Notes under the pieces: model-generated
The model's database searches: none
Seen by the model: the letters and a program-made list of their open reading frames with translations, nothing else
What the model was told of the DNA's origin: nothing
Shown here: positions 196 through 14,660 of the stretch, one piece after another
Numbering within the stretch: position 1 is the stretch's first letter
Layout: each line of letters begins with the position of its first letter
IMG/VR virus record: IMGVR_UViG_2718217859_000004
Location: 1 to 38,838 of that record
DNA from: a virus
Lineage: Duplodnaviria > Heunggongvirae > Uroviricota > Caudoviricetes
DNA length: 38,838 nt
Reading direction: 5' to 3' (one strand)
Position numbers and translations under genes: made by a program

Positions 196-1047
196 TCAAC
201 GAGTGAATTTAAGTAACTGCTCTACGGTCATATTTTTAATTGCGCCCGGATTTACAAGAGTCCATCCCTGTTTTTCCAGATAAAAGCGGAAGGTATCCAG
301 GGTGCAGACCATTGCGCCGTCAGGAACGGTTTCAGTGAATTCGACATTGCCGAATTTGTCGAAGTGAACAACCAGAGTGCGTCCATCACCCGGAATAATT
401 TTGTCAGCGGGTGGGGTATTATTCTGACGCAGCTCTGCCTCCATGCGGTCGAACTCAGCGATGTAGGCCTCTTTGAATGCGGCGGCTTTTTTGCCGGTGA
501 AGCCCATTACCAGGAAAACGAAGCCGTTTTTTGTGATCTGATATGCGTTATAGGTATTGCCACGGTGCTCAAATTTAACCCGCGAAAAGTTGCTGGTTAA
601 AAAGCGTTCAGAACATTCGAGGGATTCTATTTTTTGAACAACGTGGTGATGTTGCTTGCCAAAGAATTCTGCGATCGCAATAGACGTAGTGACAGCGCGA
701 CCGTTTTCGATGGTTACATCAGGGTGAGAAAGGGTAGGGATAGTAGCCATGATGGCAGCCTCGATAGTCAGTTTAAATAACTCACCACCAAGGTTTTCCA
801 CGACCATAAGGGTGGTGAGACGTACAGGGGTGGAAATACCGGCGACTACCGAAACCGGCCAGCCTTGCGGCTGCCCTGCACGCCCCACCATAATCTGAAT
901 GTGGCTGTGCATTACGCATAAAAAAACCGCCTGAGCGCGGTTATGCGCGGTAATCATCATCGGGTTTCCACGCCCGGCACCCGTTTTATGAGGTGCAGGT
1001 GCACTATAATTCCACCCGTTCTGGTTTTCAATAGCTACATTCAACAT
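196..1047 (-). CDS. Rha-family phage regulatory protein / antirepressor-like
   Basis: 283-aa ORF; residues ~115-200 (VTTSIAIAEFFGKQHHHVVQKIESLECSERFL...) resemble the Rha domain. 99 stop-free codons upstream of the domain argue for the long form; an alternative start is M100 at 748-750 (GAGG upstream). Confidence 0.6.
   Translation of the reverse strand: MLNVAIENQNGWNYSAPAPHKTGAGRGNPMMITAHNRAQAVFLCVMHSHIQIMVGRAGQPQGWPVSVVAGISTPVRLTTLMVVENLGGELFKLTIEAAIMATIPTLSHPDVTIENGRAVTTSIAIAEFFGKQHHHVVQKIESLECSERFLTSNFSRVKFEHRGNTYNAYQITKNGFVFLVMGFTGKKAAAFKEAYIAEFDRMEAELRQNNTPPADKIIPGDGRTLVVHFDKFGNVEFTETVPDGAMVCTLDTFRFYLEKQGWTLVNPGAIKNMTVEQLLKFTR
918..942 (-). terminator. Intrinsic-terminator-like hairpin inside the N-terminal part of the Rha-family ORF
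   Basis: Minus strand reads AACCGC-GCTCAG-GCGGTT followed by TTTTTTT (6-bp stem, 6-nt loop, U7). Confidence 0.35.
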
Positions 1048-7193: not shown

Positions 7194-7952
7194 ATGAGGA
7201 ACATAATGGCTGGTTTTTTAATATTCCTGTCTTCAGCTGCTTATGCTGATATCAATCTGTATGGTCCTGGTGGCCCGCATACAGCCTTGCTTGATGCAGC
7301 CAAACTTTATGCCGAAAAAACAGGTATTATAGTGAACGTTCATTACGGCCCACAGAACAAATGGAATGAAGATGCCAAAAAAAATGCAGATATCTTGTTT
7401 GGCGCATCAGAACAATCTGCTCTGGCTATCATTCGGGACCATAAAGACAGCTTCAGTGAAAAAGATATTCAGCCTCTTTATCTGCGAAAAAGTATTTTAC
7501 TGGTAAAGAAAGGTAATCCTAAAAATATCCGGAGTATTGACGACCTGACCAGACCCGGGATTGGCGTAATTGTTAATGATGGTGGTGGTACCAGTAATAC
7601 ATCAGGCACTGGAGTCTGGGAAGATATTGCCGGACGTAAAGGGAATATAGAAACTGTCGCCGCAATCCGAAAAAATATTATTTTATATGCACCCAATAGC
7701 GGAACTGCACGTAAGGCTCTTGAGAATCAGCCTGGAGCAGATGTCTGGATAACCTGGGCTGACTGGGCAGCCAGTAATCCAGAAATTGGTGATGTCGTGG
7801 AAATAGCGCCAGACTACGTGATATGGCGTGATATGAACATTACAGTACGTCAGGATGCAAATGATGAAACCCGTCGATTTGCAGAATGGCTACAAACCGA
7901 TGAAGCGGCGCCTGCATTCAAAAAATATGGCTGGACCAGGAAAGGCACTTGA
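7194..7952 (+). CDS. Secreted periplasmic substrate-binding protein (ModA/tungstate-binding-like fold), orphan cargo gene
   Basis: AAGGAG RBS; signal peptide MRNIMAGFLIFLSSAAYA; DINLYGPGGPHTALLDAAKLYAEKTG... similar in architecture to ModA-type binding proteins; no adjacent ABC permease/ATPase; low-GC flank. Confidence 0.7.
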   Translation: MRNIMAGFLIFLSSAAYADINLYGPGGPHTALLDAAKLYAEKTGIIVNVHYGPQNKWNEDAKKNADILFGASEQSALAIIRDHKDSFSEKDIQPLYLRKSILLVKKGNPKNIRSIDDLTRPGIGVIVNDGGGTSNTSGTGVWEDIAGRKGNIETVAAIRKNIILYAPNSGTARKALENQPGADVWITWADWAASNPEIGDVVEIAPDYVIWRDMNITVRQDANDETRRFAEWLQTDEAAPAFKKYGWTRKGT

Positions 7953-7987: not shown

Positions 7988-8234
7988 CCGGATGCCGCGC
8001 CAGCGGCATGTAGGGGCAGCTCACAAAACGGAAAAAATTGTACGCTAAGCATCGCCTATGGGAATTCCCATATCGGGCGAAAACGGTTTGCTGTAACGGC
8101 AGAGTTAAGTAGAATTGCTGCGGGTGCTTGAGGCTATCTGCCTCGGGCATGAACACCAACGGCAGATAGAGAAAAGCCCCAGTTAACATTACGCGTCCTG
8201 CAAGACGCTTAACATTAATCTGAGGCCATATCTA

Positions 8235-8438
8235 TGCGACACATAGAGATTAGCCTCTTACGGACCGAAAGGTCAAGGAGAAGCAGGCTATGAAGCAGCA
8301 AAAGGCGATGCTAATCGCCCTGATCGTCATCTGTTTAACCGTCTTAGTGACGGCACTGGTAACGAGGAAAGACCTCTGCGAGGTACGAATCCGAACCGGC
8401 CAGACGGAGGTCGCTGTCTTCACAGCTTACGAACCTGA
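8235..8438 (+). CDS. mok-like overlapping reading frame (67 codons) of the hok locus
   Basis: ATG at 8235; ORF overlaps hok in another frame and ends 7 nt before the hok stop, as mok does in hok/sok loci. Confidence 0.4.
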
Positions 8439-9272: not shown

Positions 9273-10328
9273 GTGCGGGTATTACTTCGACCTGTTCTGG
9301 TACCGGAACTCGGGCTGGTGGTCCTTAAGCCAGGTCGTGAATCCATGCCGGTATTCCACAATACCCGGGTATTGGTGGAGCCGGAACCGAAAAGCATGCG
9401 TAATCTGCCGTCCGGGGTCGTTCCTGCCGTTCGCCAGCCGCTGGTGGAAGACAAAACATTGCTGCCGTTTTTCAGTAACGCACGGGTGATTCGTGCTGCT
9501 GGTGGTGCTGGTGCATTGTCTGACTGGCTGTTGCGCCATATTAAATCCTGCCAGTGGCCACACGGCGATTATCACCACAGTGAAACCGTCATTCACCGTT
9601 ATGGCGCTGGCGCGATGGTGTTGTGCTGGCACTGCGACAACCAGTTGCGTGACCAGACATCCGAATCACTCGAGCAACTTGCTCATCAAAACCTGTCAGC
9701 ATGGATGATTGACGCCATCGGTCACGCAATAAGCGGTACGCAGGAGCGTGAATTATCTTTGGCTGAATTATCCTGGTGGGCGGTCCGCAATCAGGTGGCG
9801 GACGCGCTACCGGAAGCGGTATTACGTCGTTCGCTGGGGTTGCGTGCGGAAAAAATCCGCTCAATGTACCGTGAAAGCGACATCGTACCGGGAGAGCAGA
9901 CCGCCACCAGCATACTGAAGCAGCGCACAAAAAATCTTGCGCCGCTGCCTCACGCCCACCAGCAAAACCCGCCACAGGAAAAGACGGTGGTCAGCATTGC
10001 TGTTGATCCGGAGTCACCGGCTCAGTATCTCCAGCGCCAGAAACCACAACGGGAAGAGATGCCTGTATACACACGCTGGGTAAAAACGCAGAAATGCATG
10101 ACGTGCGGTAATCAGGCAGATGATCCGCATCACATCATTGGTCATGGACTGGGAGGGATGGGAACAAAGGCTGATGATTTGTTTGTTATTCCGCTGTGCC
10201 GTAAATGTCATCACGAACTGCACGCCGGGGTAAAAGATTTTGAAGAAAAACACGGCAGCCAGCTGTTGTTGCTGATTCGTTTTTTAATGCACGCGAGAAA
10301 TTCGGGTGTCCTGAAGTGGAAAGCATGA
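9273..10328 (+). CDS. DUF968-domain protein (YdfU-like)
   Basis: GTG start with GGAGG 4 nt upstream; 351 aa; C-terminal Cys/His cluster CMTCGNQADDPHHIIGHGLGGMGTKADD...CRKCHHELH; same size and neighbourhood as Qin YdfU. Confidence 0.7.
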   Translation: MRVLLRPVLVPELGLVVLKPGRESMPVFHNTRVLVEPEPKSMRNLPSGVVPAVRQPLVEDKTLLPFFSNARVIRAAGGAGALSDWLLRHIKSCQWPHGDYHHSETVIHRYGAGAMVLCWHCDNQLRDQTSESLEQLAHQNLSAWMIDAIGHAISGTQERELSLAELSWWAVRNQVADALPEAVLRRSLGLRAEKIRSMYRESDIVPGEQTATSILKQRTKNLAPLPHAHQQNPPQEKTVVSIAVDPESPAQYLQRQKPQREEMPVYTRWVKTQKCMTCGNQADDPHHIIGHGLGGMGTKADDLFVIPLCRKCHHELHAGVKDFEEKHGSQLLLLIRFLMHARNSGVLKWKA

Positions 10329-10694
10329 ATGACTGAACGCATAGAATTTGTTTTGCCTTACCCGCCGACGGTGAATACCTACTGGCGACGTCATGGCAAT
10401 ACGTATTTCATCTCGGAAGCCGGAAAGCGTTATCGCCGTGATGTGGCGCTAATTGTTCGCCAGCAGCGGCTGAAATTAAATCTGTCCGGAAGGCTGGCGA
10501 TAAAGGTTATCGCAGAGCCGCCGGATAAGCGCCGTCGTGATCTGGACAATATTCTGAAAGCACCGCTGGATGCGCTGACGCATGCGGGGCTTCTCATAGA
10601 CGACGAGCAGTTTGATGAAATCAATATTGTGCGCGGTCTGCCTGTTCCTGGTGGGCGGCTGGGCGTGAAGATTTACAAAATTGAAAGTGAGTGA
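10329..10694 (+). CDS. rusA: RusA-family Holliday junction resolvase
   Basis: FVLPYPPTVNTYWRRHG...RRRDLDNILKAPLDALTHAGLLIDDEQ matches RusA catalytic motifs (PPS.N, RRRDLDN, D.L). Confidence 0.85.
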   Translation: MTERIEFVLPYPPTVNTYWRRHGNTYFISEAGKRYRRDVALIVRQQRLKLNLSGRLAIKVIAEPPDKRRRDLDNILKAPLDALTHAGLLIDDEQFDEINIVRGLPVPGGRLGVKIYKIESE

Positions 10695-10702
10695 GCGTAA
10701 AT

Positions 10703-11239
10703 ATGATATACCCGGAAATTACAGGCAAAAGCGGTGAGCATTTACGCCTGAAAACGCTGGAAAGTGTCTGGCTCCAGGGGAAACTGCGTATGTGGGGGCG
10801 TTGGTCGTATATAGGTGGTGGCAAAACAGGAAATATGTTCAATCAGTTGCTGGCATCCAAAAAACTGACAAAAACCGCGATCAATGAAGCCATGCGCAAA
10901 ATCAGGGAATCAGGGATTGATAAACCTGAACTGGAAGCATTCTTGCGTGAGATGATCGAAGGAAAGCAAAAAAGCTGGTTAACTCACTGCACTGATGCAG
11001 AGGCACTAAAAATTGATAGTGTTATAGGTGAAGTTCTGGCGGATCATCCAGGACTACTAAATGTCCTGAGTCAGCGTTATGTGGGGCGAGGGATGAGTAA
11101 GAGAAGGATGGCCGAGTTATTAAACGAACAGTACCCAGAGTGGGCGTTGATTACATGCCGACGTCGTGTTGATCAGTGGTTGCGTGTTGCTGAGTTCATT
11201 TTGTACTCACCTATGAGAGAAGCGTTCGATTATACTTAA
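10703..11239 (+). CDS. Late-gene antiterminator, Q-like (assignment tentative)
   Basis: Position after RusA; LRMWGRWSY resembles the ERWGAW motif of Q-family proteins; followed ~100 nt downstream by an intrinsic terminator (tR'-like). Alt. GTG start 10691. Confidence 0.55.
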   Translation: MIYPEITGKSGEHLRLKTLESVWLQGKLRMWGRWSYIGGGKTGNMFNQLLASKKLTKTAINEAMRKIRESGIDKPELEAFLREMIEGKQKSWLTHCTDAEALKIDSVIGEVLADHPGLLNVLSQRYVGRGMSKRRMAELLNEQYPEWALITCRRRVDQWLRVAEFILYSPMREAFDYT

Positions 11240-11333
11240 AAAATCATTGCAAAATGAGCCACAAACTGCTTCAATTCCGGTACGCTTCGCATAGCTGTAT
11301 CGCGAGGCGAATCAAGCGCATGAACTTTGATAC

Positions 11334-11357
11334 AACCCGCCATTGAGCGGGTTTTTT
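11334..11357 (+). terminator. Intrinsic terminator ~95 nt downstream of the Q-like gene (tR'-like)
   Basis: ACCCGC-cattga-GCGGGT followed by TTTTTT. Confidence 0.6.
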
Positions 11358-11479
11358 ATGTCCGAAAAACGGCAGAGAACATAAAACGTGCTGGTGGTTG
11401 CGAATACTGGTCTTTCGGCTTGTATTTTTGTAAATCGATATATACTTATCTTGTGACCAGTAATGTCAGGGCAATTGAT

Positions 11480-12223
11480 ATGAATGAAGCCTGTTCTGTT
11501 GTTTTTGTTCATTCCCCGTTTGTTGTGCTCTTTGAAGGAAAAGAGCTCTCTCTTGAAAGTGGTAGTGCACTTCTTGTCAGGGGGGGAGCTGGATCGTTAT
11601 TGCCCTTTTCGGAATGTTTTCGGCGAATAAGTCTCAGTGAATCGACAATTAGCCGTTACCTGTTGTGTGGAGACGAAAAACAGGATGTAGTTTTAGTCCG
11701 GCAAATACCACGATATCTTTGCGTGAGTTTTCCCAAGGCAGAATTGATGGGCATCCTGATTGATTATCTTTGTGAGGAAAAGATTCATACGGACAATTTA
11801 GCGGAAATGCTTTCCTTTTCGTGTCTGGCGTTTTTCTCATCAGAGAAAATGTTTTCGTCGTTTCTGACCGCGTGTATTAGCAATATTAGTGACAGGCTTA
11901 GTGCATTGTTTCGTACGGACATTGCAGCAAACTGGACTCTGAGAGATGTGTCTTCGCGGTTATGTATCAGTGAAAGTTTGTTAAAAAAAAGACTGAAAGA
12001 AGAAGGCACCTGTTTCAGTGAGTTGTTGCTTACAGAGAGAATGAGAATGGCAGCAATGCTGTTGAATCAATCTCGTTGCGCCATCAACAGAATCGCTGCC
12101 CAGTGCGGCTATAATTTTACATCTTATTTTATCAGCGTATTCAGGAGTTATTTTGGTGTTACACCGGCAGGTTACAGGATGGCTGCATTCAATGAGATGA
12201 GTTTAAGTGTTACTCAAGAATAA
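11480..12223 (+). CDS. AraC-family transcriptional regulator, AppY-like (cargo gene)
   Basis: C-terminal AraC HTH (LKKRLKEEGTCFSELLLTERMRMAAMLLNQSRCAINRIAAQCGYNFTSYFISVFRSYFGVTPAGY) and N-terminus EACSVVFVHSPF resemble AppY/EnvY-type regulators; AT-rich gene. Confidence 0.8.
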   Translation: MNEACSVVFVHSPFVVLFEGKELSLESGSALLVRGGAGSLLPFSECFRRISLSESTISRYLLCGDEKQDVVLVRQIPRYLCVSFPKAELMGILIDYLCEEKIHTDNLAEMLSFSCLAFFSSEKMFSSFLTACISNISDRLSALFRTDIAANWTLRDVSSRLCISESLLKKRLKEEGTCFSELLLTERMRMAAMLLNQSRCAINRIAAQCGYNFTSYFISVFRSYFGVTPAGYRMAAFNEMSLSVTQE

Positions 12224-12247
12224 TTGAATTTTGCACTCATTGAAAAC

Positions 12248-12271
12248 AGGCTCGCTGCGGCGGGCCTTTTT
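12248..12271 (+). terminator. Intrinsic terminator after the AppY-like gene
   Basis: AGGCTCGC-tgcg-GCGGGCCT (one G-U pair) followed by TTTTT. Confidence 0.55.
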
Positions 12272-12408
12272 CATATCCGCGCCACGCCCGGCGCATATCA
12301 AAAACCACAGAGCCTTTCAGGGGTGAGCTTACGGGATGGTCAGTGTGACTTTCTCTGTGGGCTGGTCACCCCCGGGCGCAGGCTCACCCACTAAAAGGAA
12401 AAGTCACG

Positions 12409-12834
12409 ATGTTTGGTATTTTCAAAAAGAAAACCCGCAAGGCCATTACTGAAGTGAAGAAGATGGAGAATCGCGATGCAGTGGAGGCGACCGTCTGGGG
12501 CGCGTATTCCATTGCATATGCTGACGGCACCTGTGACGCGAAAGAAATCGCGGTACTGGAGAAAACCATTGCAGCACTTCCTGCCTTTGCGCTGTTCTCG
12601 GGTGAGATTGCACAAATGAGTGCAAATATCCGCGCCCGTTATGAAGCATCGCCGCGTTCTGCCAATGCCGAAGCCCTCCGCCAGCTGGCTGATGTTGCCG
12701 GTACTGATGACGCTGTTAATGTGCTGTGCCTGTGTCTGGATATCGCTGACCAGGATGGTATTGGTCCGGATGAAGAAGCACAGCTCAAGAAAATTGCTCA
12801 GGCACTGCAGTTACCACTGGAGCAGTACCTGTGA
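12409..12834 (+). CDS. TerB-like (tellurite-resistance TerB domain) protein
   Basis: 141 aa, two DG-x-E-containing helices (YADGTCDAKEIAVLEKTIAAL; DQDGIGPDEEAQLKKIAQAL) typical of the TerB fold; AAGGA RBS. Confidence 0.55.
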   Translation: MFGIFKKKTRKAITEVKKMENRDAVEATVWGAYSIAYADGTCDAKEIAVLEKTIAALPAFALFSGEIAQMSANIRARYEASPRSANAEALRQLADVAGTDDAVNVLCLCLDIADQDGIGPDEEAQLKKIAQALQLPLEQYL

Positions 12835-12989
12835 AAAGTGCGCGTCTTGTGCTGGCTGCCATCCTGCTGTTTCTGGTAGTGGTGGTGGATTTTACCGGAC
12901 GGCTGATGTCGGTACTGGCAGATGGTGTGCTGGTGGCGATGGCGCTGGTCGTGCTCCGGCCTTTATTCCGGAGCAAAAACAACGGCTGA
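12831..12989 (+). CDS. Small membrane peptide (52 aa, two predicted TM helices), coupled to the TerB-like gene
   Basis: GTG overlapping TerB-like stop (GTGA); VKSARLVLAAILLFLVVVVDFTGRLMSVLADGVLVAMALVVLRPLFRSKNNG; below ORF-track cutoff. Confidence 0.35.
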   Translation: MKSARLVLAAILLFLVVVVDFTGRLMSVLADGVLVAMALVVLRPLFRSKNNG

Positions 12990-12996
12990 TTATTTG

Positions 12997-13025
12997 AGCG
13001 GGCATTTAAAGCCCGCTGCATTTTT
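12997..13025. terminator. Hairpin plus T-run between convergent genes
   Basis: AGCGGGC-atttaaa-GCCCGCT followed by GCATTTTTATT; lies between the + strand TerB/peptide pair and the minus-strand zinc-ribbon gene. Confidence 0.55.
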
Positions 13026-13704
13026 ATTGCTGCTGTTCCTTAATGCGTTCCGGTAGCACAAATGCCACTTCAAGGAACAACCGGAGAAACGCCACAAACT
13101 CTTTTGCCTGCTCATCACTGGCCTCGAGTTCGTGCACGGCTTCATTTCCTTCCATACGGATTCGGTGAGCCCAGTTTCTCATTGATTCCGTCAGTATGCC
13201 GTCCTGCCGTGCCACTTCAATGCGTGACAGCAGATTGCCTTTTTCGTACCCCAGGGCACGGAGGGCAACCTCGAGGACGCTACGGCAGCCAACAATAATA
13301 CGCGGGGCAGTTCTGCCGGACCGAACATCCTCCTGCAACTCAGTGAAGACTGCGCGAATTTTTTCGGGATAGTGGGGGGAGTCATCGGGCAGCCTGAGTT
13401 CAGGATAGATTTTGATGCTCCCCTCAAGTGGAGCATTCAGCACCCAGGCTTTGTTGTTGATGGCTTTTTTCATGTCCACCAGTTCACTGACTGAACATTC
13501 GAATGCGATCATTAATGGGTTGTTGCATTCTGTGCAAAAGTCCGTTGAGTATGCTTTTGCTGATGTTATTTCAGAGGTACGCGGTTGTTGCATGTAAAGC
13601 TTGTTTTCTGTAGCCGGACGCCTGCTGTGGTACTGGGTGACCTCATTCAGAGAAATATGAACCTGATGAAGGCAGTACGGGCATTTAATTTTCAGGGAGT
13701 ACAT
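13024..13704 (-). CDS. Zinc-ribbon protein with DUF4145/HEPN-like C-terminal domain (candidate abortive-infection/defence protein)
   Basis: Start 13702-13704 with GAAGAGG upstream (ORF extends to 13893); N-terminal CPYC...CTEC zinc ribbon; C-terminus IIVGCRSVLEVALRAL...MRNWAHRIRMEGNEAVHELEA with an R-x7-H motif in an all-helical region. Domain call from memory, unverified. Confidence 0.5.
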   Translation of the reverse strand: MYSLKIKCPYCLHQVHISLNEVTQYHSRRPATENKLYMQQPRTSEITSAKAYSTDFCTECNNPLMIAFECSVSELVDMKKAINNKAWVLNAPLEGSIKIYPELRLPDDSPHYPEKIRAVFTELQEDVRSGRTAPRIIVGCRSVLEVALRALGYEKGNLLSRIEVARQDGILTESMRNWAHRIRMEGNEAVHELEASDEQAKEFVAFLRLFLEVAFVLPERIKEQQQ

Positions 13705-13962
13705 ATGACCTCTTCGACAGAAGTGATAACTGAATTTGAAAATTGCATAGCAGATTCTGCCAGTGATTCTGTAGCAGCGATAGAACGAAGGTTTGCTGCT
13801 GCTCAGACCCGGTATGGTCATGATGCAGCCGTCAAGGGGCTGGCAATGGCGTTTGTTATTGCAGAGAACCGCCGTCGCTTTATTGAAGCGCAAATGACAC
13901 TAAAGCAATAAATAGCACCACACAAAAGGCATCTGAGGGTGCCTTTGACGGGGTGTTTTTAT

Positions 13963-13988
13963 GGGCCACTGGAGGCCCTTTTTTATTT
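13963..13988 (+). terminator. Terminator-like hairpin immediately upstream of the holin gene
   Basis: GGGCC-actgga-GGCCC followed by TTTTTTATTT; holin RBS starts 3 nt later. Confidence 0.5.
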
Positions 13989-14002
13989 ACAGGAGAAAAA
14001 GT

Positions 14003-14395
14003 ATGTCTGAACCCTTATCCGGTTCCGGCACGGCTGCGGCGCTCGGCGGGGCGACGGTATTCGGGCTGTTTACCGGAACGGATTTCGGGATTGTGTTTGG
14101 TGCGTTCGCCGGGGCGTTATTTGTGGCAACGATGCCGCAGGCGCTTTCAGCCTGGCGGGTGGCGGCGCATTTTCTGGTGTCGTTCATTGTCGGCGTGCTG
14201 GGAGCGCGTGTGCTGTCTGCCTGGATAGCGGCAAAAACAGGTTATGACGGCACATCGGCAGATGCGCTGTGTGCGGTGCTGGTATCGGTGGTGTCGGTAA
14301 AGATTCTGTCGTTCATCCACCAGCAGGATATCGCATCACTGGTGTCCGGCCTGTTCTCCCGCCTGCGGGGTGGAGGAGGCGGCAATGTTAAGTAA
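14003..14395 (+). CDS. Phage holin (multi-TM)
   Basis: AGGAG RBS; 130 aa with Gly/Ala-rich hydrophobic segments (GGATVFGLFTGTDFGIVFGAFAGALFVA...); first gene of the lysis cassette. Confidence 0.7.
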   Translation: MSEPLSGSGTAAALGGATVFGLFTGTDFGIVFGAFAGALFVATMPQALSAWRVAAHFLVSFIVGVLGARVLSAWIAAKTGYDGTSADALCAVLVSVVSVKILSFIHQQDIASLVSGLFSRLRGGGGGNVK

Positions 14396-14660
14396 CCTTC
14401 CCGGATTGCTGAATGTGGCGTTATGCACGGTTATCGTGCTGACGCTCTTTTTTTATCGTCGCCGTGATTCCAGACATAAACCGCTGATGTCATGGCTGGC
14501 CTGGCTGCTGATGCTGTTGTATGCCTTTGCGCCACTCAGCTACCTGTGTGGTCGTCCGTTAGCGGCGAACTGGCTGGCGGTGGGGCTTAATCTGCTGTTC
14601 TGCGTGCTGGTGATTCGTGCACGTGGGAACGTTTCAAAAATCCTTTCATTACGGAGGTGA
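14385..14660 (+). CDS. Second lysis-associated membrane protein (holin/antiholin-like)
   Basis: ATG 14385 after GGAGGAGG, overlapping holin stop; 91 aa with hydrophobic helices. Confidence 0.55.
   Translation: MLSNLPGLLNVALCTVIVLTLFFYRRRDSRHKPLMSWLAWLLMLLYAFAPLSYLCGRPLAANWLAVGLNLLFCVLVIRARGNVSKILSLRR

Follow-up and report, generated by a model that had tools for sequence, protein, structure and literature searches.

Which kind of transcription factor is encoded by the AT-rich gene that lies in the late-operon leader of the virus record IMGVR_UViG_2718217859_000004 (IMG/VR; Caudoviricetes), and does it serve the phage that carries it or the bacterium that hosts the phage? We analyzed the whole stretch of this record, 38,838 nucleotides (nt) in length and hereafter called the window, and focused on this gene, which is located between a Q-like antiterminator gene and the lysis genes. 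We consider it, with a probability of about 0.6, to be a moron that encodes a functional AraC/XylS factor of the YdeO/GadW/AppY/PatE/Psr subfamily and acts on its host by the mechanism proposed below.

Identity of the gene and its place in the AraC/XylS family

The C-terminal ~100 amino acids (aa) of the gene product matched the Pfam models HTH_18 (E 1.9e-13; 50.9 bits, with a cut-off of 33.6) and HTH_AraC (E 2.9e-13), and this C-terminal domain, with its two helix-turn-helix (HTH) motifs, places the protein in the AraC/XylS family; over its full length the protein further matched PHROG_1450 (E 1e-56), annotated as of unknown function. The GC content of the gene is 41.9% (40% at third codon positions) as compared to 51.7% in the window. 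A preliminary description of positions 11240-12271, which correspond to the interval from the stop codon of the Q-like gene to the end of a second terminator, had presented an AT-rich AraC-family gene as prophage cargo that comes after the Q-like gene, is preceded by a tR'-like terminator and is followed by a terminator of its own. All of these elements were recovered in our analysis, with the gene intact and immediately next to the Q-like gene, unlike the resemblance to AppY that was proposed alongside them.

The gene lies within one long open reading frame (ORF) on the + strand (11327-12223 in the ORF listing of the window), and we regard ATG 11480 as its real start because the resulting N-terminus is conserved family-wide (M1 and C5 are invariant in the family alignments, M1 among the six proteins of one of them), because the copy of Escherichia coli GB089, which is 99.8% identical, is annotated in RefSeq as a coding sequence (CDS) of the same 744-nt extent, and because an upstream extension crosses a terminator hairpin. 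A candidate Shine-Dalgarno sequence, AGGG, was located 8 nt 5' of this ATG. A longer ORF beginning at TTG 11327 (298 aa) was rejected, since its extension passes through the hairpin and since ATG 11480 is where the aligned family members begin and where RefSeq places the start of the closest copy; an apparently identical over-extension occurs in some database entries, namely P0002 (308 aa) and the RM10740 CDS (283 aa).

Sequence comparisons indicate that this is a working gene and not a pseudogene. The window copy is full length, and when compared by the Nei-Gojobori method to a 91%-identical allele from E. coli RM10740 it displayed a synonymous divergence (dS) of 0.234 and a nonsynonymous divergence (dN) of 0.064, giving a dN/dS of 0.27 overall, 0.21 in the DNA-binding domain and 0.36 in the N-terminal domain, which indicates purifying selection. 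Among 5426 complete E. coli genomes, 64 (~1.2%) carry the gene at full length, 41 at an identity of at least 95% and 23 at ~91%, and many of the listed carriers were isolated from cattle, beef, manure or swine. Assemblies indexed with the exact protein are very numerous; in all 8 contexts shown the gene comes after a DUF1133 gene (once with ORF6N between them), and it is followed either by TerB-DUF3927-IraM (6/8) or directly by holins. Among the copies with a listed annotation, a divided gene, made up of two CDS, occurs only in strains C7 and C3. In both strains the two parts are annotated as a hypothetical protein and an HTH regulator (in C7 at L015 3221-3962, 98.5% identical), which reflects either a frameshift in the allele or a misassembly.

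An AlphaFold2 model, built on a 10-sequence alignment, was confident for the DNA-binding domain (predicted local distance difference test, pLDDT, ~80-96), and the modelled domain superposed on GadX (3mkl) at 1.1-1.6 Å with a template modelling (TM) score of 0.93. The first recognition helix, ISESLLKKRLK, is near-identical to those of YdeO, PatE, PsrA, AppY and GadW, and the invariant K169 of the window protein aligns with K170 of AppY, a prophage-borne member of the same subfamily (DLP12, E. coli K-12) in which mutation of this DNA-binding lysine abolishes DNA binding (PMC10057817). Regulators of the Rns/ToxT type carry a cupin-like, fatty-acid-binding N-terminal domain, a beta-barrel with a ligand pocket. 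Sequence matches to Rns, CsvR and ToxT span residues 67-233 of the window protein; full-length Foldseek comparisons to these three proteins reached a TM score of only 0.40, with a root-mean-square deviation of ~18 Å, the N-terminal part of the model being of low confidence.

We then asked to which of the known AraC regulators the protein is most closely related. Its best NCBIfam match was the YdeO equivalog NF007407 (E 2.9e-43, nearly full length), with a score of 148.3 bits that falls below the cut-off of 348, and judged by this score the protein does not qualify as a YdeO orthologue; the GadX equivalog NF007432 was matched by the C-terminal half only, at 98.5 bits with a cut-off of 500. Pairwise identities to the window protein (overall, N-terminal and C-terminal, respectively) were 37%, 31% and 48% for PatE (ECs_0287; 37-39% over the full length), 36%, 28% and 48% for PsrA (the 237-aa ORF of ECs_1087), 35%, 32% and 43% for YdeO, 35%, 28% and 47% for GadW, 28%, 20% and 42% for AppY, 26%, 15% and 43% for EnvY, and 25%, 13% (12.9%) and 43% for GadX. 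The subfamily is defined by a length of ~240-250 aa, an N-terminus of the form MxxxCSV and the recognition helix SESLLKKKLK, and the window protein aligned end to end with YdeO, GadW, AppY, PatE and PsrA, over 236-247 residues and at 28-37% identity. Residues C5, W152, S164, S166, L167, K169, R187, C209-G210-Y211 and S215-Y216-F217 were invariant in the subfamily alignments.

In a neighbor-joining tree, the window protein and its 83-87%-identical relatives formed a clade sister to PsrA, PatE and P0012; across 200 bootstrap replicates this clade grouped with the PsrA/PatE set in only 117, with the YdeO group in 9 and with AppY in none. We therefore revised the affiliation from AppY-like to PatE/Psr/YdeO-like: PatE, PsrA, YdeO and GadW are all closer (35-37%), and of the eight named relatives used in the comparison AppY is one of the more remote, with EnvY and GadX lower still. 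Position does not support the likeness either, as appY neighbors ompT in DLP12, at the tail-fibre end of that prophage, and is not behind Q. The gene represents, on the basis of these comparisons, a separate lineage of the YdeO/GadW/AppY/PatE/Psr subfamily, most likely on its prophage-borne PatE/Psr side. DNA-level searches yielded no link from the gene to psrA, patE, ydeO or appY; at the protein level, the closest uncharacterized database homologue outside the window clade is ~41% identical, the characterized regulators are at most 37% identical, and homologues of 37% identity occur in isolated lambdoid phages, for example Lambda_ev245, where their slot is flanked by Q and holin S.

PsrA and PsrB, prophage-encoded secretion regulators of enterohaemorrhagic E. 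coli (EHEC) O157:H7, are likewise prophage-borne AraC/XylS proteins of ~240 aa, and psrA (ECs_1087 in Sakai prophage Sp4; PMC13502914) occupies the same slot as the window gene, with an antiterminator gene 5', lysis genes 3' and a related hairpin element upstream. It differs in that the tRNA genes ileZ-argN-argO follow it and, according to the review PMC10877973, in its link to effector and pch genes, none of which are found in the window. The same review mentions six additional Psr homologs. The annotated psrA CDS encodes 195 aa (L009 18803-19390), and the ORF from 18677 encodes 237 aa with an MxxVCSV N-terminus, so that its RefSeq start looks to be placed too far downstream. PatE (Z0321/ECs_0287) of prophage CP-933H/Sp1 is also prophage-borne and has the same length of 247 aa; its gene differs in location, lying past the tail-fibre and pin genes at the far end of a degraded prophage and not behind Q, and it bears no similarity to the window gene at the DNA level. 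YdeO of E. coli K-12, by contrast, is not phage cargo but a chromosomal, EvgA-controlled activator of gadE, encoded beside safA. Prophage AraC regulators of this subfamily are already well described, and the window gene is an uncharacterized lineage in a familiar slot; what is new here is its corrected affiliation, the evidence for a functional gene and the exact hairpin-to-hairpin boundaries of the cassette. Our findings on the cassette leave the current understanding unchallenged.

A cassette bounded by two hairpins

The gene directly upstream of the cassette was correctly labelled Q-like, because its product matched Pfam DUF1133 (E 3.8e-100), Phage_antitermQ (28.8 bits, with a cut-off of 26) and PHROG_753, an "anti-termination protein Q-like" family (E 1.4e-75), and because it is positioned after RusA and before two holin genes. 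The ATG of the AraC gene lies 240 bp past it. The first of the two hairpins folds at -12.7 kcal/mol (z -2.8) and the second at -20 kcal/mol (z -5.4), with none of 200 shuffled sequences folding equally well. The first hairpin, together with ~70 bp downstream of it, recurs in the prophage of E. coli TUM9757 and in two Sakai prophages, Sp4, where it precedes psrA, and Sp6, where its distance from Q is 93 bp; this recurrence supports its interpretation as a tR'-like terminator.

Comparison to other prophages delineated the cassette. In E. coli RM10740 the 91%-identical allele belongs to another lambdoid prophage and has a quuD-type Q gene and an ompC-like porin gene on its 5' side and tRNA-Gly and holins on its 3' side; homology to the window is limited to 11334-12272, that is, from hairpin to hairpin. 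In prophage hubt-sl the DUF1133 gene is 91% identical and comes with the same leader and hairpin, homology stopping at 11355; past the hairpin this prophage carries tRNA-Thr/Gly and holins, and the AraC gene is absent. TUM9757 matches both flanks of the window gene, its slot being filled by another type of Q, ORF6N, a methyltransferase and tRNAs, and its homology to the window restarts at 12249, inside the second hairpin and upstream of the TerB module. Because the two hairpins are shared with the neighboring modules in RM10740, hubt-sl and TUM9757, we take both to be recombination joints, and the comparisons suggest that terminators act as mosaic joints between prophage modules.

The cassette displays several properties of a moron: only some relatives have it, others lacking it at the corresponding site (comparisons to hubt-sl, TUM9757 and RM10740), it has its own terminator (12248-12272) and its GC content is deviant. 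As for a promoter of its own, there is a weak candidate at 11420-11446, conserved in the 91% allele and scoring under the scan threshold; the block that includes it, 11417-11479, is the best-conserved upstream stretch between the window and this allele. The clean boundaries of the cassette illustrate how morons move between phages.

Several minor observations concern the same junctions. Both hairpins recur as exact end-points of homology among otherwise unrelated prophage modules (Sakai Sp4, Sp6, TUM9757, RM10740 and hubt-sl), and the second is present twice in RM10740. In strain EC11 the holins come directly after the AraC gene, and the TerB and DUF3927 genes are absent. In GB089 (L001 16157-18745) an IS66-family element is inserted between the terminator of the AraC gene and the TerB gene, and its joint shows an 8-bp overlap in the window sequence (12303-12310), consistent with a target-site duplication. 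Rfam and tRNA scans detected nothing in or next to the AraC region; the slot lacks tRNA genes in the window, in contrast to the psrA/Sp4, hubt-sl and RM10740 contexts, where they occur.

Proposed role and competing explanations

The leader slot between Q and the holins is the one that holds stx in Stx phages. By comparison to such stx-type morons, the same dual expression would be expected of the window gene, namely from its own promoter in the lysogen and by Q-dependent read-through, though its cargo is a regulator instead of a toxin and read-through is here a prediction. In a lysogen, where Q is absent, transcripts from the late promoter would halt at the terminator at 11334-11359, and expression of the gene would depend on a separate, weak promoter belonging to it, presumably within 120 bp 5' of the ATG, yielding a transcript that ends at 12248-12272; its AT-richness makes silencing by H-NS and conditional expression likely. 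The protein is expected to bind AT-rich operators via its two HTH motifs and to activate the host acid-fitness promoters gadE and hdeAB, resulting in more acid resistance and, in hosts that have such systems, in a downstream repression of motility or type III secretion. Upon induction, Q-modified RNA polymerase would read through both terminators and the gene would be coexpressed with the late genes, like stx.

The proposed targets rest on analogy: because the characterized members of the subfamily all converge on the acid-fitness island, the most likely role of the protein is that of a lysogen-expressed activator of gadE and hdeAB that raises acid resistance. YdeO, GadW and GadX act on gadE. 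As described in the review PMC10877973, PatE activates gadE, gadBC and hdeAB, PatE and PsrB act directly on hdeA and gadE and increase acid survival, PsrA is likewise an activator of gadE/hdeA, and the targets of PsrA and PsrB include gadE and yhiF, type III secretion being repressed secondarily. For AppY, direct activation is described for gadE as well as gadY (PMC10057817). That such a regulator can rewire host stress regulons in the lysogen, as the preliminary description suggested, gains plausibility from these characterized relatives. AppY, PatE and PsrA/B are established cases of phages plugging into the acid-resistance and virulence circuitry of their hosts, and if activation of gadE and hdeAB holds true for the window protein, its gene would constitute another transferable determinant of gastric-acid survival.

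A number of observations weigh against this role. The protein is only 25-37% identical to every characterized relative (12.9-32% in the N-terminal domain), and therefore the signal it senses and part of its regulon could differ; its N-terminal model is of low confidence, with a pLDDT below 50 at residues 61-134. A sigma-70 scan of 11240-11480 returned no promoter at threshold, only weak candidates read by hand, of which the candidate own promoter combines a 15-bp spacer with a poor -35 element. The scan of the post-Q leader did not identify its late promoter, the candidate at 11247-11275 being below threshold; the TTGnnn-17-TTCAAT spacing of this candidate is kept in strain EC11.

The divergence just described is the starting point of one alternative, in which the lineage senses a different signal and controls a distinct host regulon, or reprogrammes the host specifically during induction, the latter being conceivable because the gene is inside the Q-dependent late transcript. 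We view this as unlikely; in the same alternative, as a side point, the two terminator hairpins would be exact recombination joints for transfer of the cassette between prophages with unrelated Q genes.

It is similarly improbable that the regulator serves the phage, controlling the neighboring phage or moron genes (the TerB/TciB-like pair, DUF4145 or the lysis cassette) or the lysis-lysogeny decision, with incidental effects on the host. Phage-borne regulators of phage promoters are common, the gene lies in the late-operon leader beside the lysis genes, and TerB-DUF3927-IraM follows it in 6 of the 8 contexts, yet no downstream partner is conserved, the next genes being holins in EC11 and L017 and tRNA-Gly in RM10740, with DUF4145 in place of IraM in the window. 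Moreover, nothing but the cassette itself is transferred, from one hairpin to the other, and PatE, PsrA/B and AppY act on chromosomal targets (PMC10057817, PMC10877973).

We also doubt that the gene is no more than a passenger, silent (H-NS-silenced or promoterless) or in decay, that hitch-hikes on prophages and plays no physiological role in the host. Such a passenger would fit the lack of a convincing promoter in the scan, the AT-richness, the presence in just ~1.2% of complete E. coli genomes and the split copies of C7 and C3. It is disfavored by a dN/dS of 0.27 across alleles with a dS of 0.23, by the invariance of the DNA-binding residues, by the intactness of all annotated copies listed save these two, found on several unrelated prophage backbones, and by the 60 bp 5' of the ATG, which are more conserved than the remaining upstream region.

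Lastly, an orthologue or functional equivalent of DLP12 AppY, with its control of hya and cbdAB-appA in hypoxia and phosphate starvation and its stabilization of RpoS, is highly improbable, for although the two proteins belong to the same AraC subfamily, are prophage-borne, have similar lengths (247 vs 249 aa) and share a recognition-helix motif, AppY ranks below PatE, PsrA, YdeO and GadW in identity (28% overall, 20% N-terminal), pairs with the window protein in 0/200 bootstraps and is encoded at another prophage position, past the tail-fibre genes beside ompT.

Genomic neighborhood

The positions of the cassette elements and of the neighboring genes are listed in Table 1. As for the remaining sequence of the window, its lambda-like head module and baseplate-type tail genes are those of a lambdoid E. 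coli prophage, and the prophage of TUM9757 is 94% identical over ~80% of the first 25 kb of the window.

Table 1. Features of the AraC cassette and its surroundings, in window coordinates
Feature	Position	Strand	Remarks
DUF968 gene	9273-10328		Upstream of RusA
RusA gene	10329-10694		Upstream of Q-like gene
Q-like late-gene antiterminator gene	10691-11239	+	182 aa; DUF1133 family; directly 5' of AraC cassette
Post-Q leader	11240-11333	+	Conserved with a DUF1133 prophage without the AraC gene (hubt-sl)
Candidate late promoter, TTGCAA-17 bp-TTCAAT	11247-11275	+	Putative; non-canonical; below promoter-scan threshold
Intrinsic terminator (tR'-like), left cassette junction	11334-11359	+	7-pair stem (11334-11353) and T run (TTTT)
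Candidate own promoter of AraC gene, TTGTAT-15 bp-TATACT	11420-11446	+	Putative; weak; hand-read from sequence
AraC/XylS-family regulator gene	11480-12223	+	247 aa; 744-nt CDS from ATG 11480
N-terminal regulatory domain of AraC gene product			~aa 1-135
Dual-HTH DNA-binding domain of AraC gene product	11885-12184		~aa 136-235
Intrinsic terminator, right cassette junction	12248-12272	+	8-pair stem (6 GC); hairpin 12248-12267 and T run (TTTT)
TerB/TciA-like gene	12409-12834	+	Neighboring cargo outside AraC cassette; Pfam TerB; PHROG_632/PHROG_1470 for the TerB and DUF3927 pair
DUF3927/TciB-like gene	12831-12989	+	Neighboring cargo outside AraC cassette; PHROG_632/PHROG_1470 for the TerB and DUF3927 pair
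DUF4145 gene	13024-13893	-	289 aa; between DUF3927 gene and holins
Two holin genes	13961-14395 and 14370-14660		Downstream of DUF4145 gene

Where DUF4145 stands in the window, most of the other AraC-gene carriers have a gene for an anti-adaptor of the IraM/PmrD family (L001 19730-20065; L016 7778-8113), through which the RpoS stress network would be affected as well.

A second AT-rich cargo gene was observed in the early/nin region, where 7194-7952 (+) encodes a 252-aa SBP_bac_11 protein within a trough of 34% GC; the region is 95% identical in TUM9757, where it is annotated as "AcfC family adhesin Paa". A type I toxin-antitoxin locus, hok/sok, is marked at 8122-8292 (+) by its sok antitoxin RNA (101 bits) and matches the hokD region of TUM9757. 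Finally, Rfam detected adjacent C4 antisense (79 bits) and IsrK Hfq-binding (65 bits) RNAs at 808-996 (-), a pair reminiscent of the C4/IsrK immunity or anti-Q modules of the P1/Gifsy type; both RNAs fall inside the 5' part of an Ash/Rha-domain ORF (196-1047, -), the start of which may be over-called.

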